From positions 85,624,001 to 85,688,000 of the forward strand of contig NC_058368.1 in NCBI RefSeq assembly GCF_018350175.1: DNA of 64,000 bases, in the 5' to 3' direction. The translations under genes were made by a program, and so were the position numbers. The notes beneath the pieces are model-generated. The model did not search any database and was not told the origin of the DNA. It was given only the letters and a program-made list of their open reading frames with translations. Shown in pieces: positions 15,628 to 51,295 of the stretch (position 1 is the stretch's first letter; every line of letters starts with the position of its first letter). The DNA is from Felis catus. Lineage: Eukaryota.

Positions 15628-16192
15628 TCAGTCACAAAGAAGATCTTCTTCCTGGCATTTTATTACTGGCAGAATGGCTAGAGGATGCCCATTTAGACCA
15701 CTGTAGAGGAGGCCAGGACAAAAGTATGGCCTCAGGGCCTCTGTGAAGCAGTTTTTATAGGTGTAGATATGAGACAGGTTGGTCACATTATAAAAGGGAC
15801 TCTTCCAGCCTCATAGTCCAGGAAGATACCAATAATCTCAGGAGATTCCTCAAGGTGGATTGTTAACCATGGATTTGCAAGAGCTTGGTGGCCATTACTT
15901 CTCTTCAAGCACAGTGTCCAGAATCCAGTCTCTGGGGATAGCATGATTTCTCCCTGTCTACAGACAGAATCCTTACAAATACCGATAGTCCATTTTATTT
16001 TATTTTTCACACTCACTTCCCAGTAGTGTCTACCTCTGAAAAAACATTGCTGACCTAATACACACACCAGTTTCTCAAACCGCTGCCTACATTTGGGTAG
16101 TTCCTGAAAGACATCACCTCCTTTTGCTCTTTTGTTGTCTTCATCAATTTGGAGATATGGGTGACCTGTGTCTGGATCCAGGGTAACATTTT
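15628..16192 (-). pseudogene. B30.2 (PRY-SPRY) terminal exon with a 1-bp frameshift near 15796
   Basis: Acceptor ttccatag| is followed by NVTLDPDTGHPYL...RFEKLVCVLG...GRHYWEVSV...WTIGIC...PETGFWTL...IGIFLDYEAGRV. After the frameshift the alternative frame reads FYNVTNLSHIYTYKNCFTEALRPYFCPGLLYSGLNGHPLAILPVIKCQEEDLLCD* (TGA at 15628-15630). The LDP, WEV, LDYE and RPYF motifs are all present. Confidence 0.93.
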
Positions 16193-16454
16193 CTATGGAA
16201 GAACATGTTATTAGTTTTGGCTATGATCAACAATATCAACAATAATTAACACAACATACAACTGCCCTTCCTCCAAATAGGAAATTTCTCTAGCTTTCCT
16301 GAAATGAAGTAGCTCCTTTACCTCAGAGAATGATCTTTGTAGTTACTCAAGCACTTGAGAACTTGATAAGAGAATTTGTCCAGAATGGAAAAAATTAGTT
16401 TCTAAACACACATTTTCTCATCAAAATAATTTTGAATGTGGCCAATTTCACACT

Positions 16455-16635
16455 GCACACTTGTTATGTGCCTTGTGCTGTTTGAAGCATATTTATAAAT
16501 AATTTTCATAACAATGCAATGAAATGGAAAGATATATGTATTTTGTAGTTAAGACAACAAACATTTAGGGAAGTTTATCTAACCATAATTACTAATATAC
16601 ATCAATGTTTGGATTGAAGTCCAGATCTGATTCAA
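16455..16635 (-). mobile_element. Probable MIR relic
   Basis: Degenerate MIR-like phrases (cacttgttatgtgcc...cataacaatgcaatga...ggattgaagtccagatctgattc). Confidence 0.45.
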
Positions 16636-17886
16636 TTTGTGAATTAATGAAAAACAATTATACATATTTTCTTTAAATCTGAATGCTTTGACAATTTAAA
16701 ATTTTTCCTAAATGACCCTATGAAATTTAACCAGACTTACTGAATTACTTTTCCTAAAAGTTTATTCATGTTGATAGAAATTTTCACAGATATGTGAATC
16801 CAAAAATAATTTTTAAAATGTTGAAAGCATATAAACACACAAGCCAGATGTAAAAATGATCCAAACATTTACCCAATTACATAGGATTCTATTAATACAG
16901 GCTAGAAGTGTTTCTGTGATGAATTAACTTCTAATAGTTGTACGTAAAACTAAATTTTACTGGTATTAGTGTAACCACAAAGAAAATTCCACTAGTATTA
17001 ATGTAATATAAAATAACCAAAGACTTATATGTTAGCATTGTAAATATAGGATTATGTGCCCTTAAAGCCACTGCAACTCACTTACTCATGGGCATTTTTT
17101 GAAAGCAATATATGATATCTAGGCTATACTTTTTTTTTCAGTTAGTAAATTTGTTTCTAAAGTTGTCTAATAAATGTGAATATTATGTCAATTAGTTATA
17201 TAAACTGGAGAAATCTCCTAAGAATACTTACCATACATGTCTTTGTAAAAACAGTGTATTATGCCCTGACTTTCTTCCTCAAAGTGTATTTGTGGTAATC
17301 AAATGAAAATACTTTATTTGAAATAATTCATACAAAGCTGTAAAATGTAACACAAATTGTTCTTGTTCCTAATATTAAACAGAGGTCCTAAATTTGACAA
17401 TTTGTTAGAAGTCAAAAGATATCCTAAAGGAGGTAGGAATTTTCAATTTGATAAAGTAAATGAAGGACAACGGATTGTGATCCATAGGCAATTACTATCA
17501 TTGTGTCACTAGCCTCCATCCTAACATAGATGAGTGGCAACCTGCCCTTACCCCATTCCCTGTCAGCTGCCCCCAAAACCATTCCATTCCCCAACTCATT
17601 TCTGGTTCTAAAAAGCACATTTGATGATATCATTTAAGGCTATAATATTTTGCTTCTCTCCATCACTGTATCTCAGAGAGCAGAACCATTTGTGATTTGT
17701 AAGGAGTTATAGCTATAAAGTACCCAACAATAAAGATGACAAAATGGAAATTTTGGAGAAAAAAAAAGGGATTTGTGTGTGTCTTCAGTGTGAGTTTGTG
17801 AGTGTGTTACAGTTTCCCTTGTCTGATGGTCTAGTGTCCTGGCCAAAACGAAGTATCAATATCCAAATATTTCAGTGTGTAGTTAC

Positions 17887-17913
17887 CTGCATAGTGTCGA
17901 GCAAATTTCAATC
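17887..17913 (-). CDS. 27-nt micro-exon preceding B30.2 (GLKFARHYA)
   Basis: Minus strand reads attag|GATTGAAATTTGCTCGACACTATGCAG|gtaact. It is phase 1, in frame with the B30.2 exon, and resembles the xW(R/K)xAxLHA-type exon of butyrophilins. Confidence 0.85.
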
Positions 17914-17915
17914 CT

Positions 17916-17916
<1 letters not shown>

Positions 17917-17943
<27 letters not shown>
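17917..17943. repeat. (TA)n microsatellite abutting a splice acceptor
   Basis: Directly visible. Confidence 0.95.
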
Positions 17944-17946
<3 letters not shown>

Positions 17947-18052
17947 GTAGTTTTGAAATTAAGAATTATCAGTGAATAAAACAGGACAGAGATGAGTGGT
18001 CAAAAGGCAAGTGCATGAGTCAGGGCTAGAGGTGGCCATTTTCATTACTCAC

Positions 18053-18079
18053 CTTCTTCTCCCAGGAGTTTTATCCTTT
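18053..18079 (-). CDS. 27-nt micro-exon (ERIKLLGEE)
   Basis: Minus strand reads cattctttcag|AAAGGATAAAACTCCTGGGAGAAGAAG|gtgagt, with a 139-nt intron to the next exon. Confidence 0.85.
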
Positions 18080-18180
18080 CTGAAAGAATGGGATGTAGTG
18101 AGGTATTGCTTTGAAATATAAATACATTTCTTTTTAAAAATATATTTAAATTCCTATCTTTACAGAGTAATTTTACTTAC

Positions 18181-18201
18181 CAAAATTTTCATGAAGTTTT
18201 C
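18181..18201 (-). CDS. 21-nt heptad micro-exon (GKLHENF)
   Basis: Minus strand reads tttgcattttag|GAAAACTTCATGAAAATTTTG|gtaagt, with a 101-nt intron to the next exon. Confidence 0.85.
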
Positions 18202-18657
18202 CTAAAATGCAAACAGTGACAAATCCTTGTGAGAATTTTTTAGGACTTGTTAACTAGACTCTTTTTCTAATTCTTACACATGTAAATCTTTGGTGTAAGG
18301 AAAAAAAAAGAATAGACAATTGTTGGATTTAAGTTACAGAGTTGGAAAATAAATAATGGTTAAAAAGATTTCCATTTGTTTTGTTTTAACATAATTCAAA
18401 CGATCATAATGCAAATTGTTATCCAGAAATAACCTCTCCCAGGTGTTTCCATTAAGCATATCGACTTCTACAGACTTCCCCAACCAAAAAGTATAAATAT
18501 TGAGAAGCTAGCACTGAAAGCAACGGTGAGATTTGGATATAATTTCTGATTCTCTGCACCTGAAGAATTAAAAACTAAATGAAGCTATTTCTGCTATAAC
18601 GTTTGTTTTGAAATTGCGAATTTGTCCCAATATGAATAACATATTAAGAAGGAATTT

Positions 18658-18860
18658 GGGGTGCCTGGGTGGCTCAGTTGGTTGAGCGACCGACTTCAGC
18701 TCAGGTCATGATTTCATGGTTTGTGAGTTCAAGTTCCACGTCAGGCTCTGTGCTGACAGCTTGGAGCCTGCTTTGGATTCTGTGTCTCCCCCTCTCTCTG
18801 CCCCTCCCCTTCTCATGCTCTGTGTGTGTCTCTCTCTCAATAATAAATAAACGTTAAAAA
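18658..18860 (+). mobile_element. Can-SINE
   Basis: GGGGTGCCTGGGTGGCTCAG-type head. TSD AAGAAGGAATTT at 18646-18657 and 18861-18872. Confidence 0.95.
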
Positions 18861-18984
18861 AAGAAGGAATTTGAGTATGCTATGAATTTTGCGTTTGTTT
18901 ATGTGTGATTTTGTGAGGTAGAAAGTTGTACCCAATTGAGTCTAGAGGTATAGAAATGCATACAATATATAAGCATGCAAAAAT

Positions 18985-19017
<33 letters not shown>

Positions 19018-19084
19018 TTTGCACACATCTTAAAAAGACACTGGGATATACCCATCTGCATCTTATAATAAAACTTTCTGTCCT

Positions 19085-19309
19085 GGGGCATCTGGGTGGC
19101 TCAGGTGGTTTAAACTCCAACTTTGGCTCAGGTCGTAAACTCGTGGTTCATGAGTTTGAGAATTGCATCGGGCTCAGTGCTGAAAGCTCAGGGCTTGGAT
19201 CCTGCTTGGGATTCTATGTCTTCCTTTCTCAATGCCCCTCCCCCCTTCTCTCTCTCTCTCTCTCTCTCTCTCAAAACATAAATAAAAAAAATAAATACGT
19301 AAAAAAAAA
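19085..19309 (+). mobile_element. Can-SINE (diverged)
   Basis: Head ggggcatctgggtggctcag, (CT)n and A-rich tail. Confidence 0.9.
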
Positions 19310-19671
19310 TCTTTATATCCTGCCACATTCACAGTAACTCCAAGCTGTCACCCTCACCAATGCCACCCTCACCAATCCATATTTCTTTTCTGCTATTTTT
19401 TTTATCTTATTTCTATTTTCCCTCATCATTATCTTTTTTTTTTTATTCTCTTCCTTTGCACAAATTTTTGGGCTTGGAGGTGGAGGTAGTGGAAGTACAT
19501 GCTGCTGTGTGTAAACTTTAGTTTCTCTCAAGGTAAAGTGAAATATTACTTTAGTATGTAGGTATTTTCTAAAAATTTAACAAGTATAAAATTTTATAAC
19601 AATTTTATGAGTTTCTATATTTTGAAAAAATGCCACCAAGAAGGTTTTGGACTTCCATGCCCTTAATGTCA

Positions 19672-19954
19672 TGTTATAAAATGAATTTCTTTCTACAAAA
19701 TTCATATGTTAAATTCCAAAACCCAATGTAATATTTGGAAGTGGAGACTTTGGAAAGTAATTAAGTCATTACAATGGAACCCTCATGAATAGGATTAGTC
19801 CCTCATAAGAAGAGGCATGAGTATTTGTTCTTGCTCTCAACTTTCAGTCATGTGAAAGAACAGTGAGAACACGGCCATTTGCAAACCAGGGAGTGGACTC
19901 TTAGACACCAGATCTTCTGGTGCTTTGACCTTATATTTCCCAACTTCTAGAATT
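19672..19954 (+). mobile_element. MaLR LTR fragment (MLT1A-like)
   Basis: Recognisable phrases aaaattcatatgtt...ccctcatgaataggattagt...taagaagag...acaccagatct...ttgaccttatatttccca. Confidence 0.7.
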
Positions 19955-21414
19955 CAACAAAATCAACATATAAAAATCCACAAAATCAATCATACCAAAA
20001 GGAGGAAATATTTACATGTTGGAGAACAAGAAGATGGAGGCACCATAAGAATGTACTGAAGGAAAGGGATGGAGCAATAAGAAATTGAAAACAGTTTCAT
20101 TCCTAGGATGGAAGGCCACTGGGACTGCACATTCTCTTCAGAAGGACATCATACCAGCACCAGGCCTGAGATAAGAATGTTTTGTCTGGCATCAGATGCA
20201 CTCATGAGCCAGTATGGAATACACTGCAGGTACATGACCTGTCAATATGCCAAATACTATGTTGTATGTGCTTGCTGCTATCAGACAAATTGCAAAAATA
20301 AAAAAGGTTTGATCCAGGACCCAGTGCTTAGGCTCCTGGAGAGTCTTAGCCCCCTGATTTGTAATTCTCTCATCATCACACCTTTAGGACCTGTCTCTCT
20401 ACATTTGCAAATCCTCATAAAAGAGTTAATAATCAAAATTTATAAAGAACATACACAATAAGAAAAGCAAACTATAACCAAATTATATCTCTATCAGGTG
20501 TGATCCGTGTAATTGTAAGACATTATCTTAAATTAAGATGATGCTGTTATCTACAACTTGATGGATAAATGAGCTAATTTGAAAAAAAAATCCAAAATTC
20601 TGCATTCAGCATGTGGTATTTAACTTATCTGACATGTCCACAAATAACATTACTTTTCATTACTTTTCATTCATGACATTCTTAATTTAATTGCAAACAT
20701 TTCCTACTTATCTACATTTTCATTGATACTATTCTTTAGACCAAGCACTATTTTCATTGTGATGAATATGACACAGTCTCTCTACCCACAGAGGCTTTGA
20801 CAGGACGCCTGCCAACTGAAACATCATTGTAAAATCAAGGTGTTATAAGAGAATGAAAGGGTCACCAGAGGTATTTCTGCTGACTTTCAGAGGGGTTATA
20901 ATCTATGTGTTTAACTATAGACATCATTTGTTACAAAAATATGTGTATTAATTTATTTTTAAAAAGATTATATATATATATATATATATACCATCAGGTT
21001 TCCATTACCCAGCTACAACTCCTTTAAAATATATTTACATATTTTCAATATCTGAATATCCAAATATTTTACCCCACAATAACAAAAAGAATATCTAATA
21101 CATGTTTTTTCCATAATGTGTTCTATTCTTTTCAAAATTAATTGTAATATTTTCTATGAAAATAAATATTCTTCTATTGCATATTTGAGTGAAGAATGGT
21201 TTTCTTTCTTGCAAATGACATTTAATAAACTAGTTCTTTTAGGATTATTGATAATTCCTTCAATCTGATAAAAGAACACACACAAAAAAACAACCTAACT
21301 ATTGTTCATTTATAAATCCAGCCCAGATTTGATCCTACAGAAAGAAAATAAAAAACTTGAAGGCAGAAAAATGATTATGAGTCAAAAAACAGTTAAAGTA
21401 AAAGTGCAGTTTGT

Positions 21415-22344
21415 GAAGGAGGAGGGAAGATGGCGGCGTAGGAGGACGCTGGGCTCACCGCACGTCCTGCTGATCACTTAGATTCCACCTACACCTGCCT
21501 AAATAACCCAGAAAACCGCCAGAGGATTAGCAGAACGGAGTCTCCAGAGCCAAGCACGGACGAGAGGCCCACGGAAGAGTGTAGGAAGGGCGGCGAGGCG
21601 GTGCGCGCTCCATGGACTGGCGGGAGGGAGCCGGGGTGGAGGGGCAGCTCGCTGGCCAAGCAGAGCCCCCGAGTCTGGCTTGCAAAAGCAGAGGGGCCTG
21701 ACGGACTGTGTTCCCACAACAAGCGGGACTTAGCTTCTGGGAGGTCATAAGTTAACAGCTCTGCTCCAAAAGCGGGAAGGCTGGAGGACAAAGGGAGGGA
21801 GAGCTGCTGAGTCCCCCGATGACAGAGCTCAGTTTGGTGGAAAACAAAGGTGCTCGCCAGCGCCATCTTCCCCACCCATCCCCCAGCCAAAATCCCAAAG
21901 AGAACCAGTTCCTTCCAGGGAACTTGCTCGCTCCCTGCAAACACCCAACTCTGCGCTTCTGCAGAGCCAAACCTCCCGCAGCGGATCTGACTCCCTTCTG
22001 CTGCCACAGGGCCCCTCCTGAAGTGGATCACCTAAGGAGAAGCGAGCTAAGCCTGCCCCTCCTGCCCCCGTGCACCTTGCCTACCCACCCCAGCTAATAC
22101 GCCAGATCCCCAGCATCACAAGCCTGGCAGTGTGCAAGTAGCCCAGACGGGCCACGCCACCCCACAGTGAATCCCGCCCCTAGGAGAGGGGAAGAGAAGG
22201 CACACACCAGTCTGACTGTGGCCCCAGCGGTGGGCTGGGGGCAGACATCAGGTCTGACTACAGCCCCGCCCACCAACTCCAGTTATACACCACAGCACAG
22301 GGGAAGTGCCCTGCAGGTCCTCACCATGCCAGGGACTATCCAAA
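21415..22344 (+). promoter_or_regulatory. L1 5' UTR internal promoter, CpG-rich, with a YY1-type motif
   Basis: AAGATGGCGG at 21427-21436. GC and CpG content are far above the flanks. Confidence 0.8.
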
Positions 22345-23235
22345 ATGACCAAGCGGAAGAATTCCCCTCAGAAGAATCTCCAGGAAATAACAACAGCTAA
22401 TGAGCTGATCAAAAAGGATTTAATAATATAACAGAAAGTGAATTTAGAATAATAGTCATAAAATTAATCACTGGGCTTGAAAACAGTATACAGGACAGCA
22501 GAGAATCTCTTGCTACAGAGATCAAGGGACTAAGGCGCAGTCACCAGGAGCTGAAAAACGCTTTAAACGAAATGCATAACAAAATGGAAACCACCACGGC
22601 TCGGACTGAAGAGGCAGAGGAGAGAATAGGTAAACTAGAAGATAAAGTTATGGAAAAAGAGGAAGCTGAGAAAAAGAGAGATAAAAAATCCAGGAGTATG
22701 AGGGGAAAATTAGAGAACTAAGTGATACACTAAAAAGAAATAATATACGCATAATTGGTATCCCAGAGGAGGAAGAGAGAGGGAAAGGTGCTGAAGGGTA
22801 CTTGAAGAAATAATAGCTGAGAACTTCCCTGAACTGGGGAAGGAAAAAGGCATTGAAATCCAAGAGGCACAGAGAACTCCCTTCAGACGTAACTTGAATC
22901 AATCTTCTGCACGACATATCATAGTGAAACTGGCAAAATACAAGGATAAAGAGAAAATTCTGAAAGCAGCAAGGAGTAAACGTGCCCTCACATATAAAGG
23001 GAGACCTATAAGACTCGTGACTGATCTCTCTTTTGAAACTTGGCAGGCCAGAAAGAATTGGCATGAGATTTTCAGGGTGCTAGACAGAAAAAATATGCAG
23101 CCAAGAATCCTTTATCCAGCAAGTCTGTCATTTAGAATAGAAGGAGAGATAAAGGTTTTCCCAAACAAACAAAAACTGAAGGAATTTGTCACCACTAAAC
23201 CAGCCCTACAAGAGATCCTAAGGGGGACCCTGTGA
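22345..23235 (+). pseudogene. L1 ORF1p, frameshifted
   Basis: ATG at 22345 (MTKRKNSPQKN...). C-terminal fragment RHIIVKL...QPRILYPASLSF...LKEFVTTKPALQEIL. No continuous ORF. Confidence 0.92.
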
Positions 23236-23285
23236 GACAAAGTACCAGAGACATCACTACAAGCATAAAACATACAGACATCACA

Positions 23286-26200
23286 ATGACTCTAAACCCG
23301 TGTCTTTCTATAATAACACCGAATGTAAATGGATTAAATGCGCCAACCAAAAGACATAGGGTATCAGAATGGATAAAAAAACAAGACCCATCTATTTGCT
23401 GTCTACAAGAGACTCATTTTAGACCTGAGGACACCTTTAGATTGAGAGTGAGGGGATGGAGAACTATTTATCATGCTACTGGAAGCCAAAAGAAAGCTGG
23501 AGTAGCCATACTTATATCAGACAAACTAGACTTTAAATTAAAGACTGTAACAGGAGATGAAGAAGGACATTATATAATAGTTACAGGGTCTATCCATCAG
23601 GAAGAGCTAACAATTATAAATGTCTATGCGCCGAGTACCGGAGCCCCCAAATATATAAAACAATTACTCATAAACATAAGCAACCTTATTGATAAGAATG
23701 TGGTAATTGCAGGGGACTTTAACACCCCACTTACAGAAATGGATAGATCATCTAGACACACAGTCAATAAAGAAACAAAGGCCCTGAATGAGACATTGTG
23801 TCAGATGGACTTGACAGATATATTTAGAACTCTGCATCCCAAAGCAACAGAATATACTTTCTTCTCGAGTGCACATGGAACATTCTCCAAGATAGATCAC
23901 ATAATGGGTCACAAAACAGCCCTTCATAAGTTTACAAGAATTGAAATTATACCATGCATACTTTCAGACCACAATGCTATGAAGCTTGAAATCAACCACA
24001 GGAAAAAGTCTGGAAAACCTCCAAAAGCATGGAGGTTAAAGAACACCCTACTAACGAATGAATGGGTCAACCAGGCAATTAGAGAAGAAATTAAAAAATA
24101 TATGGAAACAAATGAAAATGAAAATACAACAATCCAAATGCTTTGGGATGCAGCGAAGGCAGTCCTGAGAGGAAAATACATTGCAAACCAGGCCTATCTC
24201 AAGAAACAAGAAAAATCCCAAATACAAAATCTAACAGCACACCTAAAGGAACTATAAGCAGAACAGCAAAGGCAGCCTAAACCCAGCAGAAGAAGAGAAA
24301 TAATAAAGATCAGAGCAGAAATAAAAAATATAGAATCTAAAAAAACTGCAGAGCAGATCAATGAAACCAAGAGTTGGTTTTTTGAAAAAATAAAATTGAC
24401 AAACCTCTAGCCAGGCTTCTCAAACGAAAAGGGAGATGACCCAAATAGACACAATCATGAATGAAAATGGAATTATTACAACCAATCCCTCAGAGATACA
24501 AACAATTATCAGGGAATACTATGAAAAATTATATGCCAACAAATTGGACAACCTGGAAGAAATGGACAAATTCCTGAACACCCACACTCTTCCAAAACTC
24601 AATCAGGAGGAAATAGAAAGCTTGAACAGACCCATAACCAGCGAAGAAATTGAATCGGTTGTCAAAAATCTCCCTACAAATAAGAGTCCAGGACCAGATG
24701 GCTTTCCAGGGGAGTTCTACCAGACGTTTAAAGCAGAGATAATACCTATCCTTCTCAAGCTATTCCAAGAAATAGAAAGGGAAGGAAAACTTCCAGACTC
24801 ATTCTATGAAGCCAGTATTACTTTGATTCCTAAACCAGACAGAGACCCAGTAAAAAAAGAGAACTACAGGCCAATATCCCTGATAAATATGGATGCAAAA
24901 ATTCTCAATAAGATACTAGCAAATCGAATTCAACCGCATATAAAAAGAATTATTCACCATGATCAAGTGGGATTCATTCCTGGGATGCAGGGCTGGTTCA
25001 ACATTCGCAAATCAATCAACCTGATACATCACATTAACAAAAAAAAAAAAGAGAAGAACCATATGATCCTGTCAATCGATGCAGAAAAGGCCTTTGACAA
25101 AATCCAGCACCCTTTCTTAATAAAAACCCTTGAGAAAGTCGGGATAGAAGGAACATACTTAAAGATCATAAAAGCCATTTATGAAAAGCCCACAGCTAAC
25201 ATCATCCTCAACGGGGAAAAACTGAGAGCTTTCTCCCTGAGATCAGGAACACGACAAGGATGCCCACTCTCACCGCTGCTGTTTAACATAGTGCTGGAAG
25301 TTCTAGCATCAGCAATCAGAGAACAAAAGGAAATCAAAGGCATCAAAATTGGCAAAGATGAAGTCAAGCTTTTACTTTTTGCAGATGACATGATACTATA
25401 CATGGAAAATCCGATAGACTCCACCAATAGTCTGCTAGAACTGATACAGGAATTCAGCAAAGTTGCAGGATACAAAATCAATGTACAGAAATCAGTTGCA
25501 TTCTTATACACTAACAATGAAGCAACAGAAAGACAAATAAAGAAACTGATCCCATTCACAATTGCACCAAGAAGCATAAAATACCTAGGAATAAATCTAA
25601 CCAAAGATGTAAAGGATCTGTATGCTGAAAACTATAGAAAGCTTATGAAGGTAATTGAAGGAGATATAAAGAAATGGAAAGACATTCCCTGCTCATGGAT
25701 TGGAAGAATAAATATTGTCAAAATGTCAATACTACCCAAAGCTATCTACACATTCAATGCAATCCCAATCAAAATTACACCAGCATTCTTCTCAAAACTA
25801 GAACAAGCAATCCTAAAATTCATATGGAACCACAAAAGGCACTGAATAGCCAAAGGAATTTTGAAGAAGACCAAAGCAGGAGGCATCACAATCCCAGACT
25901 TTAGCCTCCACTACAAAGCTGCCATCATCAAGACAGCATGGTATTGGCACAAAAACAGACACATAGACCAATGGAATAGAATAGAAACCCCAGAACTAGA
26001 CCCACAAACGTACGGCCAACTCATCTCTGACAAAGCAGGAAAGAACATCCAATGGAAAAAAGACAGTCTCTTTAACAAATGGTGCTGGGAGAACTGGGCA
26101 GCAACATCCAGCAGGTTGAAATTAGACCACTTTCTCACACCATTCACAAAAATAAACTCAAAATGGATAAAGGACCTGAATGTGAGACAGGAAACCATCA

Positions 26201-27103
26201 AAACCTTGGAGGAGAAAGCAGGAAAAGACCTCTCTGACCTCAGCCGTAGCAATCTCTTACTCGACACATCCCCAAAGGCAAGGGAATTAAAAGCAAAAGT
26301 GAATTACTGGGACCTTATGAAGATAAAAAGCTTCTGCACAGCAAAGGAAACAACCAACAAAACTAAAAGGCAACCAACGGAATGGGAAAAGATATTTGCA
26401 AATGACATATTGGACAAAGGGCTAGTATCCAAAATCTATAAAGAGCTCATCAAACTCCACACCTGAAAAACGAATAACCCAGTGAAGAAATGGGCAGAAA
26501 ACATGAATAGACACTTCTGTAAAGAAGACATCCGGATGGCCAACAGGCACATGGAAAGATGTTCAGCGTCGCTCCTTATCAGGGAAATACAAATCAAAAC
26601 CACACTCAGGTGTCACCTCACGCCAGTCAGAGTGGCCAAAATGAACAAATCAGGAGACTATAGATGCTGGAGAGGATGTGGAGAAACGGGAACCCTCTTG
26701 CCCTGTTGGTGGGAATGCAAATTGGTGCAGCCGTCTGGAAAGCAGTGTGGAGGTTCCTCAGAAAATTAAAAATAGACCTACCCTATGACCCAGCAATAGC
26801 ACTGCTAGGAATTTATCCAAGGGATACAGGAGTACTGATGCATAGGGCCACTTGTACCCCAATGTTCATAGCAGCACTCTCAACAATAGCCAAATTATGG
26901 AAAGAGCCTAAATGTCCATCAACTGATGAATGGATAAAGAAATTGTGGTTTATATACACAATGGAATACTACGTGGCAATGAGAAAAAATGAAATATGGC
27001 CTTTTGTAGCAATGTGGATGGAGTGGAGAGTGTGATGCTAAGTGAAATAAGCCATACAGAGAAAGACAGATACCATATGGTTTCACTCTTAAGTGGATCC
27101 TGA
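23286..27103 (+). pseudogene. L1 ORF2p (endonuclease/reverse transcriptase), disrupted
   Basis: NVNGLN, CLQETH, GDFN and SDH endonuclease motifs; QGCPLSP and FADD RT motifs; C-terminal cysteine-rich region. Stops end at 24257, 25845 and 26466, plus frameshifts. Confidence 0.96.
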
Positions 27104-27403
27104 GAAACTTAACAGGAACCCATGGGGGAGGGGAAGGAAAAAAAAAAAAAAAGAGGTTAGAGTGGGAGAGAGCCAAAGCATAAGAGACTGTTAAAAACTG
27201 AGAACAAACTGAGGGTTGATGGGGGGTGGGAGGGAGGAGAGGGTGGGTGATGGGTATTGAGGAGGGCACCTTTTGGGATGATGACTGGGTGTTGTATGGA
27301 AACCAATTTGACAATAAATTTCATATATAAAATTAAAAAAAAGTGCAGTTTGTCAGTATAAAGACAAAATAAAGCAATAAATCAAAATTAGAGAATAAAA
27401 TTT

Positions 27404-27407
<4 letters not shown>

Positions 27408-27438
<31 letters not shown>
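27408..27438. repeat. Poly(T) tract of about 31 nt
   Basis: Directly visible. Confidence 0.9.
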
Positions 27439-27440
<2 letters not shown>

Positions 27441-30123
27441 CATCACTGAGGGCCTGGTTCTAATTACCGAAAGTTTAGGCAATTGAAGAGATCACTAATG
27501 TAGAACAGTTGATGAATCAGTGATATAAAGTACAGATTTTTATTAACATCTCAATGGACAAAATCAATGGTACCAGTTGCAGAGGCCAAAAGGGGGGCAT
27601 TTTGTTTGTACTTCCTTCTCCATTACCTCCCACTCCACCTTCCACATTGAATTCTTCATTAAGGTTTCTTGATTCTAGCTCCATGGTAGGTTTCATGTTC
27701 CCTCAAGCCCTTCTAACCAACTTCCACCATTCATCACCTTTTGGAATCTTACCCACTGTGGAAGACCCCTTGCTGGTCTCCCAATGCCCACTCCTGAACA
27801 CATCAATGGATTTTCAAATACAGTCTTTTTAAAATGCTAGCCTTATAACTTCTAGGTTAAATACCTACTCACTCAAAATTCCTCAGTTTCTTTCACCACT
27901 CATAGGATGAATATTGAATTCTAAAAGTGACAGTGTCTTCTGTCTACTTCCTCAGTTGTACTTTCTCTTTGTTTTTTGACACCATATTACTTTAATAATT
28001 TATATTCTTGTTTTAATGTTAGGCACATGAAGAAAAGAATACGTGCTTTTTACTTACCTATGTATTATTATTGTAAAGCACAATTTCTTTGATACAAAGA
28101 GCTTTAATAAATAAATGTAGGTTGTTATTGATGATGATCAGGAGGAGGAGGAAGACAACAATGATGACAAATGCATTTTCCCATCAGGATATATCAAACA
28201 TGAGTAACCTACCTTTGTTAACTATAGATAAATGCTTTCATTCTTTCATGTATTACCTTAATTTTTTTAATATAGTGAAACTGTTTGTTGACATTCCTTG
28301 TGTAATGAATTCAAGTTTTTCTTTTCTCCAAAGAAGTATTAATTCAATTCTTGGAAAATGAGTTGAAAATAATTATTGGAAATGTAGTAAATATAGGTAT
28401 AGTGGTTTCAGGTTTGGGTTAATTTGTAGTACTTCTGATTTCAATCAGGATGGGTTTATGTTATATAGACCCATTCAGAGTACTTTTACATTTGATCAAC
28501 AGCTTTCCTTAAATGAGAGTATTTGTCACACAGAAAATCTAAATCTGAATAGGATTTCAAAGTCAAATAAAGCAGGGGCAATATTGCAAACACTATAATG
28601 TGGCATGTGGCTTCTAGGCTATGAATCTCAGAGGCAAAATGAATTCACAGACTTTACATAGGATTTCCTTCTTCCATTAAATGCCAATTTATCCAGGATT
28701 TTTTTTCTCATTAAAGACACCATTAGACTCATACAGTAACTAAGTAATATACATAATTGGTGACTTAAAAGACTAACCATGAACTAGGAAATAAGTAAGC
28801 ATGTACAGACTTTTGAGATCTGTTTATTTAGCTGAGTGTATATCTCAGAGTAGATCCCCCCATAGCTTTTTTTTTCTTTTTTACCACTAACCATATAATC
28901 TGTTCTCTACCTTCAAGAAAATAACATTTTAGAAATAAAAATCTTATCACTGCACCCTTTTTTTTTGTTTAGCATTTTTATGATTTCCTGATTTTCTTGG
29001 ATAATATTCAAAATTCTGTTTCTTGGACAGCATTCAAAATTCTTAGATTGGTAAATAGATGTTACATTTCCCAGTTTTTGTCTACCCATACCCTTGTGTG
29101 GGTTTTCTGAACCACAAACACCTGGCTAATTTTGTCTCCTCTAATGAATCATGTGCTCACCGCCCTCCCCACCCCCCACCCAGAGTTTAGCGCATTTTGT
29201 GCTTTCTGCTGTATACATGCTAATCCTCTCTTTGATCTACCTTTCCTCTTCATTACCACTAGACTTTTTCTGCATTGAGTTTCTTTAGCAAATCCACAGC
29301 CCCATAAGTTAAATCTCACTATTGCCTGTGTTCATGGCATCATGAACCCTCTTCCGTGACACTTATTAGAATATTTATTTTACATTTATTATTTAAATAT
29401 GGAATTTTCATCTGTCCTAAGTTGGCAACTTCCATAATGAAAGAGAGTTTTTGTTTTGTTTTGTTTTGTTTTGTTTTGTTTTTCTGATTGCTTTTTAAGC
29501 ACTGGCTATAAAATAGGTAGTTAATTACTATATGTGCAAATTGTGACTATGCTCAATGAATGGGGCAAATTTAAGACCTGAGTTCCAGCACTCAACAGCA
29601 CAAGTTGAAGCATCTTGCTCTTCTCCATTTATGCCTAAATCTTTCCCTGTCTGAGGAATTTTTATATTCACTTTTTAAAAAGATACTTTAAAAGCAAAAG
29701 ATATTTTAGCTGTTTCTAAATATTTTTAGGCCTGGATTTTGTTTTTTGTTTTTTTTTTTTTGTTGTTGTTGTTGTTTTTTTTAATGAAGAAAGAACATGA
29801 AGTGTGGAATGTTCAAACACAACTTCATTCAAAAACAGATATAACTTATCATTCTCTTTTTTCTTATTTTCCTTACATAAAGAAATAAGCAAAAGTATGT
29901 TAGAACATTTCTTGCTATACCTATTAGTTGAAAATGTGTCCCAGAACATGGTCCTTATTTGAAAACAGAGACCCTGAGACCAAAGATTTGATGAACCAGT
30001 ATCTCTGACAAGTAGAGAGACAGTTAATTTCTGAAAATAATAATAGCACAAGCTAAAAAATATATTATTGACATGTAAATGTGTTTATAAAGATATAAAC
30101 CAGGATGTTAAAAGGGTCACTTT

Positions 30124-33025: not shown

Positions 33026-34349
33026 AAAAGTACAACATAGTTTCAACTTATAACTAATCATCTATAAGGAGACGGTTTAAAAGAATTTATGCTTTATGAT
33101 ATAGAAATCAATTGCTAATAATTATTGGTGGATCAAATATATTTGTAATGATAAATTTGCCTCTAAAATATAAACAAATACTACTCACCTTCTGTTTAAG
33201 TACGATTTCAGTGTAAAAACAAAATATATAATAAAGATTTCAACAAAATATATATGGAAGAATTTCTAGAGAAACAGACTTTAATCAAATCTTTCAAACT
33301 GTAACTTGGTAACATTTTAGCCAAGTAGTGAAAATAAGAGCTAGAGAAAAGAAAAAAAGGAAGCAGGCGTTGTGTCCATCATCTCAAAAAGGTAATTTCT
33401 AAGAGACTCCAGTGTATCATCAAATATGCACATAACTCCATCATCTACAGTCTCCTTTCTCCAAGAACTAAGTCAGTCCATGTCACTCCATCTGCTGAAT
33501 GTGTGGATCTCATCATAGGGATTCCCTAAACAAAGTTCATCCAGATCACATATGGGGACCAAATTTCAAGAGATTGGGACAGGATCAGAGAATCGTTGAG
33601 AGGGGACATATCCAGAGTCCAGAATAATCTTCAGTAGCCAATTAGTCTTCATTGCTCATCCTAAGAAGAAATCCTGGGCATTGAAAGACATAATTTTTCT
33701 CCAATGCTTAATAAGGGGCATAGACTGATGACAATACAAACACCAGTTCATATCTTGGACATTGGTATGTAGCACATGAGGAAAGATTTTAAACTTTGAG
33801 GGGTCAGAGAAAGTTAGAAAGAATCCTCAAGACATAAGGAAGTTTTGAAAATGCAGAAGTGAAAAAAAAGTTCTTTAAATGCATTTTACATAAGCTTCCT
33901 TTTCTCAATTCCAATGAAAGTGGGAAAACAGGTAAAATACACACTGCAAACTAACCAACAAAAAGTGAGAATAGCTAACATTAGTAAAGATTTGGATGGT
34001 GGGCCAGGTTGTGCTCTGCATTGAAATGTAGCACCATGTGCTTTTTCAGAATTTCTGGTGGGGTTACTGCAGACCTTCCTTTAGTATATTGTCCAGGTAT
34101 TAACCAGCTTCTGTGCTCTGTAGAATCAAAGCAATATTTGCAAACTTCAAAGCAATATTTGAAAACTTCAAGGGATTATACACGTAATGATCCAACAGAG
34201 CACATGGACACTTGAACAACCTATGACTTAATTAAGACAAAAGGGAAGGAAATGTACAATCCCAAATTCCAAATTGCTATTCATTTCCTTATGTATTTGC
34301 TGACATTTTTTTCCCTCTTAAACCTTTCCTTCAAAAAAAATGCCTGACA

Positions 34350-34629: not shown

Positions 34630-34650
34630 CATATTCTTCCTGGAGTTTAC
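34630..34650 (-). CDS. 21-nt heptad micro-exon (GKLQEEY)
   Basis: Minus strand reads tgtgtttttcttcttaaag|GTAAACTCCAGGAAGAATATG|gtaagt, encoding a KLQEE coiled-coil-type heptad. Confidence 0.75.
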
Positions 34651-36335: not shown

Positions 36336-36371
36336 ATCAATAAATGAATTCCAATCATAAGTGAATGACTA

Positions 36372-42350: not shown

Positions 42351-43789
42351 AAAAATAAACAGAGACAGTAATCTTGTGGACATTATCTTTAGCATCCTAT
42401 TTATAAATGGGTTGCCTCAGGCAAGGGAAACAAAAACAAAAATAAACTATTGGGACAGCACTAACATATGAAACTTTCAACAGAAAATGAAACCATCAAC
42501 AAAATCCAAAGAGAGAAGGTATTTGCAAATAATCTATCCAAGAAGAGCTTAATATCCAAATGTGTAAATAATTTATACAACACTAGTAAAACCAAAACAA
42601 TCTGATTAAAAAATGGGCAGAGGACCTGAGTAGACAGTTTCCCAAAAAAAACCAGATTGTCAACATACATGTGAAAATATGGTCAGCATCAGTAATCATA
42701 AACAAATTGCAAATCAAAAACACAATGTGATATCACCTTACACCTGTCAGAATGGCTAGTTTCAAAAAGACAAGAAATAACACATGATGACAAGGGTGTA
42801 GAGTGAAGGGAACCCTCATGCACTGTTAGTAGGAATGTAAATTGGTGGAACCATTGAAGATGAAGATTCTGCAAAAAATTAAAAATAGAAACACTATATG
42901 ATCCATAAATCAATTACTAGTATTTACCTCCCAAAATGAAAACAGTATTTTTTAAAAAATTTGTTTCAAGTCTTTATTTAAATTCCAGTTAGTTGAAATG
43001 CAGTGTAATATTGGTTTCAGGGGTAGAATTTAGTAATTCATCACTTATATACACCCATTGCTCACCAGTGCCCTCCTTAATACCCATCACTCAGTGAAAT
43101 GGTCTGCCTGCCCACCTCCTCTCCAGAAACCCTCAGTTTGTTCTCTGCTTAAGAGTCTTTTTTATGGTTTTCCCCACTCTTTCTCTCCATGTTCATTTGT
43201 TTTATTTCTTAAATTCCACGAGTGAAATCATATGGTATTTGTCTTTTGCTGACTTATTTTAGCTTGTGTAATGATCTCTAGCTACATCTGTGATTTTCCA
43301 AATGGTAAGATTTTGTTTTGTTTTATTGTTGGGTGATATTCCATTTTTTTTATATTTCACATCTTCATTACCTATTTATCAGTCAATGGGAATTTCAGCT
43401 CTTTGTGTAATCTGGTTATTGTAAATAATGTTTGTGTACACATCAGGTGCATGTTCCCCTTCAAATCAGTAATTTTGTATCCTTTGGGTAAATAGCTAGT
43501 AAGTTTTTGAGGAACTTCCATATTGCTTTCCAGAGTGGTTGCACCAGTTTGCATTCCCACCAAGTGTGTAAGAGGATTCCCCTTTTTCTGCATCCTTGCC
43601 AACATCTGTAGTTTCCTGTGTTGTTAACTTTAGCCATTCTGACTGGTGTGAGGTGATATCTCAATGCAGTTTTGAAATTTATTTCCCTCTTGATGAGTGA
43701 TGTTGACCATCTTTTTATGTGTGTATTAGCTTTCTATATGTGTGTTTGGAAAAAAATGTATATTCATGTTGTTTGTCCATTTATTTTAT

Positions 43790-44014
43790 TTTAATTTTGA
43801 TTTAAAAAATAATATTTTATTTATTTTTGAGACAGAGAGAGACAGAGCATGAGCAGGGGAGAGGCAGAGACAGAGGGAGACACAGAATCTGAAGCAGGCT
43901 CCAGGCTCTGAACTTTCATCACAGAGCCCAACGCAGGGCTTGAACCCACAAACCGTGAGACCATGACCTGAGCTCAAGTTGGATGCTTAATCAACTGAGC
44001 CACCCAGGCATCCC
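43790..44014 (-). mobile_element. Can-SINE
   Basis: TSD TTTGTCCATTT on both sides. Confidence 0.93.
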
Positions 44015-46314: not shown

Positions 46315-46528
46315 TTGTTTTTAAATGTTTTATGTTATTAGAGACAGAGACAGACAGATTGTGAGCAGAGAAGGAGCATAGAGAGAGGGAGACACAGAAT
46401 CCAAAGCAGGCTTCAGGCTCGCAGATATCATCACAAAGCCCGATGTGGAGCTTGAAACCACAAATATGAGAGCATAATCTGAGCCAAAATCGGACACTCA
46501 ACTGACTGAGCCACCCAGGCACTCCCCA
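46315..46528 (-). mobile_element. Can-SINE (diverged)
   Basis: Typical body ending gagccacccaggcactcccc. Confidence 0.9.
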
Positions 46529-46853
46529 CATCCCTTCACTTTCAATCTACTATTGTCATGAGATCTAAAATGAGTATCTAGTAGGCAGCATAAGTGTCTT
46601 TTTTAAAAAATACACTATTGACACACTATTTGTTTTGATTGGAAATAGCAGTTTATTTCAGAGTATTTTAATTGATAAACATGAATTATTTATAGTTATG
46701 AGCTTAGTGTTTATTTTGTCATTGTTTCTGGAGATTGTGCCTGTTCCTTTCTTGCGCTTTTCCCACTGGAGTAGTCCCCTTTGATAACTCTTCCAGGGCT
46801 GCTTTAGTGGACAAGAACTCCTTTAGTTTTTGTTGTTGTTGTTGTTGTTTTTC

Positions 46854-46884
<31 letters not shown>

Positions 46885-49360
46885 TTTTTGTCTGGCAAAA
46901 TCTTTATCTCTCCTTCTATTCTGAATGATAACCTTGCTGGATGGTGTAATATTGGCTGCAGATTTTTCCCATTCAGCACCTCAAATATATTATGGAATCC
47001 TTTTTGGCTTGCCAAGATTCTGTGGAAAGGACTGCTACTAACCTTATTCATCTTCCCTTGTGAATTAGGGACTTCTTTTGTCTTGCTGCTTTTTGTATTT
47101 TTTATCTCTCCATTTTGAATACTTAGATGTAATATGTCTTGGTATTCCCCTGTTTTGTTGATTTTGATGGGAGCTCTCTGTGTCTCCTGGATTTGGAAAT
47201 CTCTTTCCTTCACCAGATTCAGGAAGTCTTCATATATAATTTCCTTAAAGAAAACTTGCCCCCCTTTTCTTTCTCTTCTCCTGGGACTTCTATATACTGA
47301 TATTATTACATTTCATGGAATCACTGAGTTCCCTAAGTCTACTTTCATGATCTAAGATTTTTCATTCTCTTTTTTGATCAACTTCCTTATTTTCCATAAA
47401 TATATTGTCTATGTCACTTATTCATTCCTCTGTTTCTTCCATTCTTGTAGCATTGAATCCCATCAGGTTTGAATGGTGGTTATTGCGCTTTTCATTTCAG
47501 ACTGATTCGTTTTAAGCAATTTTATCTCTGGGATAATGGAATCCCTGGTGTCTTGTATGCTTTTCTCAAGCATAGGTAGTATTCTTATAATTGTTGCTTG
47601 ATTTTCTGAATCAGGCATGTTACTCATATCTGTTTCAGGTAGATTATTGCCCATGACCTTTCCGTGTTCTTTTTTTGGGATGAATTGCTCTGTCTTGGTA
47701 ATTTGTCTAAGTCTGTCTTCTTCTGTGTTTGGTAAGCTTGTTATGTTTCTTTCTCCTGAGTGTAATGGATTTATGAAGAACAGTTCATATTATATCCAGA
47801 GACTTGTGCTTCAGGATATGTCTGTAGTGTGTGCTGCAGACACTCTCTTGCTATGTTATGGATGCTGTATCCTTTAGAAGAGTCCACTCGAGTTTCTCCT
47901 TGCCTCCTATGGGGAGTGTATGGGCCATGGCCAGAGAGTAGTGAATTTTAAATAGGCTGTGCTCCAGTCTGCTTGTTAATAAAGACCTGATTCTATTCCT
48001 AGTATACTTGAAGCTTTGCAGAAGTCTATGATTGGCAGAGGTTATGCATGTGTCTTCTGAGGAGGAGGCCTGCTGTGCAAGTCCTTTGGTATACTTGCCG
48101 GAGAAAAGCAGTATCAGCAGAGTGCAGGGCAGCTGGTTGGGTGTAAAGAACTGACACAGCCAGTGTTAGCTCTGTGCTGTTTACTGAAGTTAGCTTATGC
48201 TGATGTACAGGGGAGGGGGGAAATTACACCTACAGTTCCTTTGTCCCACAGGCCGGGCAGTTTGTGCTCACTGCTCTCAGGGAAGCCCTCACAGAAGAGC
48301 AGATAATTTCTCTTTTTGTGTCACAGGGGTTTTTCAGATTGTTGCTCTTACTCTGTCTGTGCCTGATTTTCGTGCCTGCCTTGAGAAGCATAGTGTACTT
48401 TGTGTTCTATTCCAGACAAGCTCCTGAATTTTAAAGTTCAAACAGTATGGTGGTGGGGACAAGTGCTGGAATTCTAGGGGAGGGTCTCACTGCACTAAGG
48501 TTGATGCAGATTTGACCCAGAAGGGTGGTCTCAACAGATTGCAGGTATGTGGGTTTGGAGCAAAGTGCACTGAAGAGTCGGTGTCCAGGTTAACCGCCTT
48601 CAGAATTTTTCTCTGAGTCTGGGCTGAGGGGTGGGGGAGGGAAATGGCACCCAAAGGCTCTTTTGTCCCTGAGTACACAATGCCATTTTGTTCAGATGCA
48701 CTCCAAAAAGGGTTAATAACTGTGTCCCCAAGTATGTTTCAGGTGATATGCAGATTATGCCATCTGCCTCTGAGTTACCTGCCTGCTTTCTCCACAGGAG
48801 CACTGCAATGCCCCCAGGATTCTAAACTAGCCAGGCCAGAGACATTTAAAACTCCAACTTTTGCATCCTGCTGGTTACATACTCATCAAAATCAGCCTCT
48901 TATTTTCCCAGTCAATGGCTTTGGAGATGTTTTTTGTATGTGATTCCCTGTGCACTCCTCTCTCTACCCTGTCTCCACAAACTGGGTGGTTTCTGTTCCA
49001 AAACACCAGTGATTGGTTTCTCTCCAAAGCACCTCTCTACACCACATACCTACTGCGTTGTGGCCTCTTCTGTCCCTCTAGTATGGCAGTTTGTTCTGTC
49101 AGTCCTCAGATCGATATGTTGGCTATTCAAAATGATTTGATATTTATCTAGCTGTGTTTAAGGAACATGACAAGCTTAGGGTCCTCCTAATACTTGACCA
49201 TCTCAGCTCTTTCCCTTAAAATACTAATTCTAAGAGATATATACAGCTCTACATTTATTGCAGAATTAATATGATAACCAAGATATGGAGGCAAATCAAG
49301 TGCTAATTGAAAAATAAAATAAAAAATGTGAAATATATATAAATATATAATGTTACTTAT

Positions 49361-49575
49361 ATTTTTAATAACACTTTAAATATTTATTTTTTCAGAGACA
49401 GAGAGAGACAGAGTGCAAGTGGGTGAGGGGCAGAGAGAGATGGAGACAGAATGTGAAGCAAGCTCCGGGCTCTGAGCTGTCAGCACAGAGCCTTTAGAGG
49501 GACTCAAACCCACAAACAGAGATCATGACCTAAAGTGAAATCAAATGTTTAACCAACTGAGTCACCCAGGCACCC
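49361..49575 (-). mobile_element. Can-SINE
   Basis: TSD TATAATGTTACTTAT at 49346-49360 and 49576-49590. Confidence 0.93.
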
Positions 49576-50754
49576 TATAATGTTACTTATCTTTAAGAAA
49601 TAAGATCCTGCCATTTTCCTGAACATGCATGTTTCTAGAGGGTATTATGATAAGTGAAATAGGTCAGACAGACCTACACCATATGATTTCACTTATATGT
49701 GGAATCCAAAGAACAAACAAGCAAAAACAGTGAATCAAACAAAAGGTGAACTCTTAAATACAGAGAACATATTGTTGTTGCTAGAGAAGAGGTGGTTGTG
49801 AAGATGGACAGAATAAAGGGGGTTAAGAATTCAAACTTCTACTTCTACTAAGATAAGTAAGCCAAAGATGAAAAGTACAACATAAAGAATACAGTCAGTA
49901 ATACTGTAATAGTGTATGTGACAGATGGTGATTACATTATTTGTGGTGAACATTGAGTAATGTATAGAATGGTCAAATAAATGTGCTGCATATCTGAACA
50001 AATTAAACTGTGTATGTTAGCTTTGATTAAAAAAAATACATTACAAAACCCCAGAATTTGCTTTCTAATCTTGAAAGATTTCTCCAGAGAAGTCACTGAA
50101 ATTTTTTCTGTGTCTAGAAAGTGATACTAGCCCAAGACTACTGTGTGTAAGAGTAAGCCCATAATTCACACTTCAAAATTTCTGCAACAGGGCACTACTT
50201 GTTGTTTCCACTCTCTGACTTCCCCAAAGTTGCATTATCTTTTAAGCTCCAAGTGCCCTGTCTCCCAAAGAACCCTAGACTCATTATGCTAGGCAATGTC
50301 CTAGGGATAGGAGCAAGAATAAAGGTCAATATCTAAATCTTAAAGCATTGCATTCATTGTACCTAAGTGCAGGTAGTGCATCTATCCCAGTCTAAAGCAT
50401 CCAAGGGAGTAAAATTTGAGTTTTCAAAAGGGCTCTGGTCTTTCTTAATGATTTAATATTTTTTAGTACTTACTAATTGTTTTTGCATACATATCGTGAT
50501 TTCTTAAAGCAGAAGAATACTACTTACCTTCGAAAGAAGTCTTGGTCTACTCTTTGATATCTTACCTTTTTCTTAAATTACAATAGCAAAGGATAAATGA
50601 CATTAAGTTCCATGCAGCCTGGGAGCTGCATGTCTTTTTCCTCCATTTGATCTGTTTCTTGTGCATTTAATCCAACAAGTAATCATAAATAAAACCTAAA
50701 TTCTAATCTTTAATGGTTCTTAATATTTTTGTAAATCATCAAGTACATTTTTAT

Positions 50755-50947
50755 ACAACCACATTCTTCATGGTGTGGCCGACTCCTGGCTCCACAACAT
50801 CAGCATTTCTAATCTGGGACCTTGTTAGAAATGCCAATACTTGAATCCAACCCAGAAAAATTGAATCAAAAATTTTGGGGGTGTCTCAGAGATTTGTTCT
50901 CTCCATGAGATTCTGATGGATGCTTGGGCTTGAGAACATTTGCTCTA
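50755..50947. mobile_element. MER5A-like hAT-Charlie DNA transposon relic
   Basis: Phrases catcagcat...cttgttagaaatgc...tgaatca...gattctgatg...ttgagaac...tgctcta. Confidence 0.65.
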
Positions 50948-51274
50948 TCTGGTCCCTAGAAATAACTTGATGAACAGAATGTTGTAGTGTTTCTGCCTTA
51001 GATCTCTGAAACTGACAAAACACAGATACTCTTCAGGGATGTGACTAGAAAAATGCTTATATATAATAAACTGTTCACTAGCTTTTACTTAAGTTCTCAC
51101 CCTGGTCTTTCTTTTTCAATATGGATAAGATTAGTTCTGTGGGAACTTTCCATGCATACACAATCCTGCAAACTTTTCTTTTGGATCCGTGGTTGTCAGG
51201 CACAGCTTGAATCTGTGACCTTTTCCTTTAAATGGAAACGTAAGCTTCTCTGAGAAAGAAGTAAACCAACTCAC

Positions 51275-51295
51275 CATGCTTCTTCTTGAGTGAAC
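51275..51295 (-). CDS. 21-nt micro-exon (xSLKKKH)
   Basis: A long pyrimidine tract ending cccccttttag| precedes GTTCACTCAAGAAGAAGCATG|gtgagt. Open in phase 1. Confidence 0.7.

Follow-up and report, generated by a model that had tools for sequence, protein, structure and literature searches.

A decayed butyrophilin-type gene in a Felis catus olfactory-receptor cluster and a tandem heptad-exon array in its intact neighbour

Within the window, that is, the whole 64,000-nucleotide stretch of Felis catus DNA analysed here, the exons of a gene that we call gene A lie on the minus strand. Five heptad-encoding micro-exons were found at 51275..51295 (the first after the transmembrane exon), 34630..34650 and 18181..18201 (21 nt each) and at 18053..18079 and 17887..17913 (27 nt each), all with an AG acceptor and a GT(A/G)A donor, exactly where a sequence-only reading of this DNA had placed them. 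As that reading also proposed, all five are in phase 1 and the junction to the terminal exon, which begins at 16192, is in frame. At the acceptor of 17887..17913 an (AT)n microsatellite stands in place of the pyrimidine tract. The terminal exon (15628..16192, minus strand, original stop at 15628) encodes a B30.2 (PRY/SPRY) domain, with profile-search scores of 57.1 bits for PRY (cut-off 27.5) and 61 bits for SPRY (cut-off 26.3). The proposed open splice into B30.2 does reach the PRY/SPRY exon in frame, but the domain is not intact: a 1-nt deletion near 15798 had gone unreported, SPRY aligns only over positions 1–82 of 121 with the remainder in another frame, and the spliced peptide stops at 15783–15785, after 174 residues. 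The earlier inventory of micro-exons had likewise missed two decayed ones, both homologues of 21-nt exons of the neighbouring paralogue C: 33189..33208 (20 nt, acceptor TG) and 29850..29872 (23 nt, acceptor AA, donor AT), again on the minus strand. The intron that leaves the window (51296..64000, minus strand) is colinear with paralogue C.

Splice-site pattern is weak evidence for exons this short. When the window was scanned strictly, three of the five micro-exons came up on the minus strand and one look-alike on the plus strand, while a loose scan returned 793 minus-strand candidates in 694 kb, too unspecific to serve as sole proof. Instead, we accept the micro-exons as real on the basis of homology, each of the five being colinear with an exon of C. 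In the order of transcription they match C at 21/21, 19/21, 17/21, 25/27 and 24/27 nt (106/117 in all), compared to ~72–84% identity in colinear intron blocks; this excess of exon over intron identity has a binomial P of 0.0015 at 80% background and 0.015 at 83%. The second, 34630..34650, is identical over its 21 nt to an exon of a further neighbour, paralogue B. Conservation in carnivores was borne out as well, since annotated proteins of lynx, leopard, seal and bear contain the same or close micro-exon peptides. L1 insertions account in part for the long introns: the 16-kb intron is partly explained by a near full-length element on the plus strand (21424..27342, ORF2 in pieces), which is not part of the gene and which, from its motifs, we take to be a LINE-1. 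Over 5933 nt this element matches an L1 from a different intron of C at 96.4% identity.

The Ig and transmembrane (TM) exons, which had been suggested to lie past base 64000 or to have been lost, were found there on the same strand together with a signal-peptide exon, all of them 12–56 kb outside the window. The TM exon (C1:85699821-85699934, minus strand) is open, 114 nt long and hydrophobic, and is 68% identical to lynx protein P0003. The IgC exon (C1:85705526-85705803, minus strand) scores 89 bits against PF22705 (cut-off 27). The IgV exon (C1:85711846-85712195, minus strand) is 74–75% identical to the IgV of its homologues and has lost both cysteines and the core tryptophan; its second half reaches 22.7 bits for V-set, under the cut-off of 26, because the domain is split and decayed. 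The signal-peptide exon (C1:85743744-85743807, minus strand) has an intact ATG and a 3-nt deletion. Gene A extends over ~104 kb of the minus strand, from C1:85743807 to 85639628, and displays the features of the butyrophilin (BTN) family: signal peptide, IgV and IgC, a single TM exon, seven heptad micro-exons (five in phase 1 with splice sites, two dead) and a terminal B30.2.

Set against aligned paralogues, gene A carries three frameshifts: a 2-nt insertion in IgV at C1:85712075, a 4-nt deletion in IgC near C1:85705560 and the 1-nt deletion in B30.2, the last relative to all three paralogues aligned. The IgV and IgC lesions are based on the assembly, whereas the B30.2 lesion is based on the assembly and on contig runs from three studies (X5 and X15 from organism A, X19 from organism B). 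Since bridging contigs without the missing nucleotide were present in 3/3 contig runs examined, the deletion is not an assembly slip. Run X15 had been guessed to be RNA; its depth is flat across introns and it behaves as DNA. Run X5 carries a C>T change at 18202, the acceptor G of 18181..18201, that destroys this acceptor, together with a 4-nt deletion at 18210 (both from one contig, depth 5.7); the acceptor-destroying allele was thus seen in one of the two runs with contigs covering the site. The ATG, the open TM exon and the splice sites of five micro-exons are retained despite these lesions, but the open frame, the IgV disulphide cysteines and the whole B30.2 that a functional butyrophilin would have are all lacking. 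Branch dN/dS values were 0.56 for A, 0.61 for C and 0.45 for B (422 codons, rough three-way split); with A not above C and slightly above B, substitution rates give no independent sign of death.

Taken together, these results indicate that gene A is very probably a duplicated (unprocessed) pseudogene, of which the window carries the 3′ half. The implication of a working hidden immune regulator founders on the three frameshifts, the loss of both IgV cysteines and the two dead micro-exons. Judging by the family, the ancestor of A would have encoded a type I membrane protein with a juxtamembrane coiled coil, built from the micro-exons, that would pair two chains and space the B30.2 domains from the membrane. 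Gene A probably arose by tandem duplication within a birth-and-death cluster (paralogue dS 0.23–0.32), and may have been constrained during a large part of its later history before dying and entering its present decay. Read from its ATG, a transcript would reach its first stop in exon 2 (IgV), at codon 94, and would likely be a target of nonsense-mediated decay. Skipping of the Ig exons would be no rescue, because B30.2 is truncated too and there is no Met in the TM exon or the five micro-exons.

It is improbable that gene A, as a pseudogene that is still transcribed, retains some role, be it as a non-coding RNA, a gene-conversion donor to B or C, or the source of a short secreted or truncated peptide. 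The survival of the signal-peptide exon and of splice sites is consistent with such a role, and conversion could explain why two micro-exons are 21/21 nt identical to B or C exons within flanks of ~80% identity; however, purifying selection in the past is a simpler reason for the conserved exons. Some transcription is conceivable, given that three metatranscriptome runs share 40–82% of the words of 15350-16250 and that X19, labelled as RNA, has one 181-nt contig within the last exon (the RNA-labelled runs X16–X18 and X20, with word shares of 0.11–0.82, were left out of the expression evidence). In the raw RNA run X24, of which ~2% was sampled, 26 reads fell on the locus, none at 99% identity or above, three at 95–99% and 23 at 90–95%. 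The sole splice joint, in two reads, belongs to a 27-nt exon of paralogue B, and no joint of gene A, the splicing anticipated for the micro-exons, was seen among these 26 reads. Both this result and the acceptor-destroying allele at 18202 argue against a residual role.

Even less probable, and already largely refuted, is that gene A is a working unannotated receptor, whose frameshifts stem from errors in the assembly or from a null allele confined to this individual. That the ATG, the TM exon and five micro-exons are intact, and that the micro-exons are better conserved than the introns, would fit a working gene; furthermore, paralogue C, which is intact in lynx, shows two small deletions here, and these could point to indel errors in the present genome. 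The recurrence of the B30.2 deletion in every contig run examined speaks against errors of this kind, and the IgV cysteines and the splice sites of two exons were lost by substitution, not by indel slips. Moreover, among the proteins compared none exceeds 78% identity with a large exon of A, while the exons of B and C are each 82–98% identical to felid proteins. Finally, the chance is negligible that a TRIM gene ends in this B30.2 exon, or that the distal micro-exons are AG..GT matches arisen by chance. Near-equal PDB scores for the B30.2 exon (BTN2A2 130.2 bits, TRIM21 129.2 bits) and the frequency of short AG..GT candidates might suggest one or the other, but the exons found upstream on this strand encode IgV, IgC and TM, and their introns are colinear. 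Of the 20 relatives at E ≤ 1e-30, 19 (66–78% identity) can be recognised as BTN-type from their name, an Ig domain or a heptad linker, the single TRIM ranks last at 49%, and the B30.2 clade contains no TRIM.

A BTN/BTNL-type gene, as first proposed, is thus what both the upstream exons and the B30.2 tree support. In the unrooted B30.2 tree the core clade has support of 99.6/100, or 98.3/99 once three marsupial proteins and the sister group are counted in, and leaves out all 18 reference B30.2 exons from the same genome; the IgC clade (96.5/98) likewise has the own-genome reference IgC exons outside it. In neither tree does gene A group with an own-genome BTN1A1, BTN2, ERMAP, BTNL2, BTNL9 or BTNL10 copy. 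The ERMAP label follows from grouping with named ERMAPs and the BTN2 label from likeness to the PDB alignment, while those that we take to be BTN1A1, BTNL9 and BTNL10 were labelled from features of sequence and neighbourhood. An exon at C13:31.30 Mb appeared as sister in a quick tree of untrimmed rows (SH-aLRT 87), a placement that vanished with trimmed domains. The clade is already annotated in mammals as ‘BTN1A1-like’; the best 120 matches include carnivores, bats, squirrels, moles, hedgehogs, xenarthrans and afrotherians, and no named primate, murid or ruminant members. A literature search found no paper on the lineage, which the main BTN phylogeny (Afrache 2012) may already cover, and the available portions of PMC9875303 and PMC11216403 do not mention the locus; PMC12841164 offers no more than a general introduction to heptad number.

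Gene A belongs to a five-copy cluster surrounded by olfactory receptors, ~230 kb from TRIM58, a neighbourhood that rules out the MHC BTNL2/TSBP1 synteny named earlier as one possibility. In this genome four of the five copies are broken or partial, C among them, and B is the only open copy. The RefSeq proteins named ‘butyrophilin subfamily 1 member A1-like’, such as XP_030170671.1 (Lynx canadensis), XP_047712925.1 (Prionailurus viverrinus) and XP_039741479.1 (Pteropus medius), share the domain order of A and near-identical micro-exon peptides, show best identities of 68–78% over the large exons, and fall in the same clade in both trees. Unlike A, a third and broken paralogue, the felid proteins are open; they are orthologues of B and C, the lynx orthologue of C being annotated. 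Annotation had therefore not missed this architecture, which together with its micro-exons is on record for paralogues in many felids (a 67-sequence cluster). Gene A is an ordinary decayed copy of a known architecture, and in itself the finding matters little.

The same plan of IgV, IgC, TM, short ‘heptad’ exons and B30.2 characterises human BTN1A1, BTN2A, BTN3A, ERMAP and BTNL3/8/9/10, according to available sections of PMC6790196. However, gene A is orthologous to none of those tested, the other BTN-type loci of the cat genome lie outside its clade, and its locus is the olfactory-receptor cluster rather than the MHC. For P0015, an intact member of the family, the best relative among solved structures is BTN2A1 (E 1.6e-100). 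Macaque BTN3A3Like, which the same sections of PMC6790196 describe as having a stop in the IgV exon, and human BTN2A3ps are duplicated BTN pseudogenes like A, but they belong to another subfamily and locus and A has more lesions.

More novel than pseudogene A is the tandem array in its intact neighbour B. This array consists of seven 12.18-kb units, each with two 21-nt heptad exons and L1 remnants; at 14 residues per unit, the seven exon pairs amount to 98 residues, by which the array could at most lengthen the coiled coil. The B product is ~591 residues long, an approximate value in that the IgC and TM boundaries are off by whole codons, with the frame unaffected. Protein models contain no such exon pair in Panthera, one in cheetah, ~1.5 in fishing cat and at least ~3 in Geoffroy’s cat. 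The closest precedent is the chicken BG family, where, going by the title of a 1990 article by Kaufman et al., size polymorphism reportedly comes from heptad-region length. In the part of PMC4046983 available, BG is described as having a single Ig domain and a long tail of heptads whose cytoplasmic coiled coil comes from many 21-nt exons, and no B30.2 is described; in B, by contrast, the repeated unit is a 12.18-kb segment including L1 remnants.

We tentatively suggest, with the balance tilted slightly against it, that the cluster represents an unnamed therian BTN lineage with fast turnover in cats, where A is dead and C is broken in this genome but unbroken in lynx and in big cats, and that the coiled coil of B may be tuned by a copy-number-variable 12.18-kb macrosatellite. 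The locus has been overlooked: a BTN lineage across mammalian superorders that carries automatic ‘BTN1A1-like’ names only. If the B array is real and translated, it would parallel, in a mammal, the length polymorphism of chicken BG, and a macrosatellite would set the distance of a receptor’s B30.2 domain from the membrane. Since BTN pairing and signalling are controlled by the juxtamembrane coiled coil, as set out in the accessible part of PMC10665462, natural length alleles would provide a ready test of spacing effects.

All five minus-strand micro-exons proposed by the sequence-only reading (51275-51295, 34630-34650, 18181-18201, 18053-18079 and 17887-17913) are present; each has an AG acceptor and a GT(A/G)A donor, and they join in phase 1 to an exon starting at 16192. 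Splice sites alone hardly beat chance, since a strict scan recovered only three of the five plus one plus-strand look-alike, and a loose scan returned 793 minus-strand candidates in 694 kb. As judged by sequence comparison, it is homology that settles the matter and places these predicted exons beyond chance. The introns of this butyrophilin-like copy (gene A) are colinear with those of its paralogue C, 500 kb distant, at ~72-84% identity; every gene A micro-exon aligns onto a paralogue C exon, the five together matching at 106/117 nt. The same or similar peptides lie between the transmembrane (TM) segment and B30.2 in annotated lynx, leopard, fishing cat, seal, bear and fruit bat proteins, and PMC6790196 describes several very short 'heptad' exons at this place in BTN genes. 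The A-C comparison also located two decayed minus-strand micro-exons, at 33189-33208 (20 nt, acceptor TG) and 29850-29872 (23 nt, acceptor AA, donor AT). A near full-length plus-strand LINE-1 at 21424-27342, its ORF2 in pieces, is 96% identical to a copy within paralogue C's IgV-IgC intron.

The exon from 16192 gives PRY and SPRY matches, both over the Pfam cut-offs. The claim that the micro-exons read into B30.2 without a stop holds for the joined frame and the domain match, but the frame ends after 174 residues; the final third of SPRY lies in a different frame, ending at 15628. Alignment with three paralogous exons places a 1-nt deletion near 15798, absent from the earlier account. The Ig and TM exons, proposed to lie beyond base 64000 or to be lost, were found there on the same strand: TM at G000:C1:85699821-85699934 (contig coordinates), IgC at G000:C1:85705526-85705803 with a 4-nt deletion, IgV at G000:C1:85711846-85712195 with a 2-nt insertion, and a signal-peptide exon at G000:C1:85743744-85743807, giving gene A an extent of ~104 kb. 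Both cysteines and the core tryptophan are gone from the IgV, and the gene spliced from its own ATG meets a stop at codon 94. With frameshifts in IgV, IgC and B30.2, the idea of a hidden working paralogue had the exons and the family right and the conclusion wrong: gene A is very probably a decayed duplicate in an annotated butyrophilin cluster, which would formerly have encoded a BTN-type receptor and now probably encodes nothing useful. A macaque BTN pseudogene with a stop in its IgV exon also figures in PMC6790196.

The IgV and IgC lesions are read from the assembly; four of 24 listed sequencing runs (X5, X15, X19 and the raw RNA run X24) were compared over 15300-18640. The contigs from X5, X15 and X19, which come from three studies under two organism labels, span 15798 with no base inserted there. 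One X5 contig (depth 5.7) has C>T at 18202, the acceptor G of exon 18181-18201, and an adjoining 4-nt deletion; X15 has the reference base at 18202. X5 and X15 show many intronic variants and small indels over 16255-18375, with a 4-nt insertion after 16411 common to both. Sampling ~2 in 100 of X24 placed 26 reads over 15300-18640, none at ≥99% identity and none a spliced gene A read. The sole joint (two reads) matches a 27-nt exon of paralogue B type, one letter off, and not A; splicing thus occurs in paralogue B, while A went unseen, on thin evidence of expression.

Membership of the BTN/BTNL family is borne out by the upstream exons and by relatives of the B30.2 exon (E≤1e-30, longer proteins), of which 19 of 20 are BTN-type (66-78% identity) and many bear the name 'butyrophilin subfamily 1 member A1-like'. 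The single TRIM ranks last, at 49%, and the grouping with TRIM proteins that was to count against the family assignment did not appear. A 55-row B30.2 tree groups A, B and C with 13 relatives in one clade (99.6/100); with its sister group of 14 and three proteins from marsupials it makes a wider clade (98.3/99), outside which fall all 18 of the genome's reference B30.2 exons. The IgC tree recovers a eutherian clade (96.5/98) and the carnivore copies together (94.3/97), with felid A, B and C weakly grouped (72.5/77). The trees conflict over the proteins of tamandua and golden mole, possibly chimeras or faulty models. A lynx protein query added hedgehog, mole, squirrels, sloth, armadillo, manatee and aardvark at ~48-53%; its best 120 of 208 matches hold no named primate, murid or ruminant members, which is suggestive, not proof, of loss. 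Among the proteins compared, none exceeds 78% identity to any large exon of gene A; paralogue exons are 82-98% identical to felid proteins, which points to a genome from the cat family. The BTN phylogeny in Figure S2 of PMC12841164 might include this clade.

A 560-kb stretch contains five B30.2 copies: A (minus strand), D (an orphan with several stops), B (open), E (a partial orphan) and C. Synteny with MHC BTNL2/TSBP1, suggested for checking, gave other neighbours: olfactory-receptor genes within the cluster and along one flank, and TRIM58 ~230 kb away. The cluster is of the birth-and-death type and lies outside the MHC. Pairwise dS among paralogues is 0.23-0.32 and dN/dS by branch is 0.56 (A), 0.45 (B) and 0.61 (C); we therefore infer that constraint acted on gene A over a large part of its past and that it died late, though with time enough since for three frameshifts and two dead exons to accumulate. 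Paralogue C (G000:C1:86111869-86196291), orthologue of a 67-member felid protein cluster, carries a 2-nt IgC deletion and a 1-nt deletion at the B30.2 start, possibly a recent loss in this species, an allele or an assembly error; its IgV has a Cys-to-Tyr change, and the gene is intact in lynx and other felids. Orphan 3' halves (G000:C1:85763556-85771540 and 85993659-85998448) hold micro-exons and a decayed B30.2, and no Ig exons were found for either. Together with orphan minus-strand signal-peptide-like exons near 86102600 and 85734000, they suggest cluster deletions or inversions.

Elsewhere in this genome, contig C14:34732-234823 carries four BTN-type IgC exons at 60-80-kb spacing, with equal scores that also match one at C13:30.98 Mb (C13:30977232), which may reflect amplification of BTNL in tandem near the MHC or a duplicate left unplaced. 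A pair of near-identical BTN-type genes, presumably BTNL10-like, occupies opposite strands at G000:C1:87681832-87728450 (L034, L035, L105, L106).

Between TM and B30.2 of intact paralogue B lies a tandem array (G000:C1:85887547-85965193, L061-L069) made up of six full 12.18-kb units and one partial unit of 4.6 kb. No substitutions separate units 2-6, which share 99.97-99.98% identity, and ~0.35% divergence sets unit 1 and the partial one apart from them; a 701-base query from the unit (40 of 63 candidates scored) found no further close copies in the assembly. The copy number of seven is an assembly count, which over-assembly of such similar units could have inflated. Two 21-nt exons flanked by AG..GT occur in every unit and would add 14 residues to the coiled coil; a third exon there has a dead donor, and the unit also contains L1 remnants. 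Joining every live exon gives B an open frame of ~590 residues that includes seven 14-residue repeats. At G000:C1:85884346-85884357 the acceptor of a 21-nt micro-exon of B has been lost, and felid protein models agree with a 12-nt exon that uses an internal AG instead; the acceptor of B's first micro-exon (near 85845500) is also dead. Counted as exons in protein models, not genomic copies, relatives have no such pairs (Panthera), one (cheetah), ~1.5 (fishing cat) or ~3 diverged pairs (Geoffroy's cat). These predicted proteins show module repetition that is not confined to this assembly, and the array is tentatively a micro-exon macrosatellite. Titles and abstract openings, with subscription papers thinly covered, yielded no work on this locus or the B array. 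PMC10665462 has the juxtamembrane coiled coil governing the pairing of BTN3A chains. The intact paralogues may regulate T cells, a family-level guess, and the possible macrosatellite of paralogue B, more unusual than gene A, is the lead to follow.
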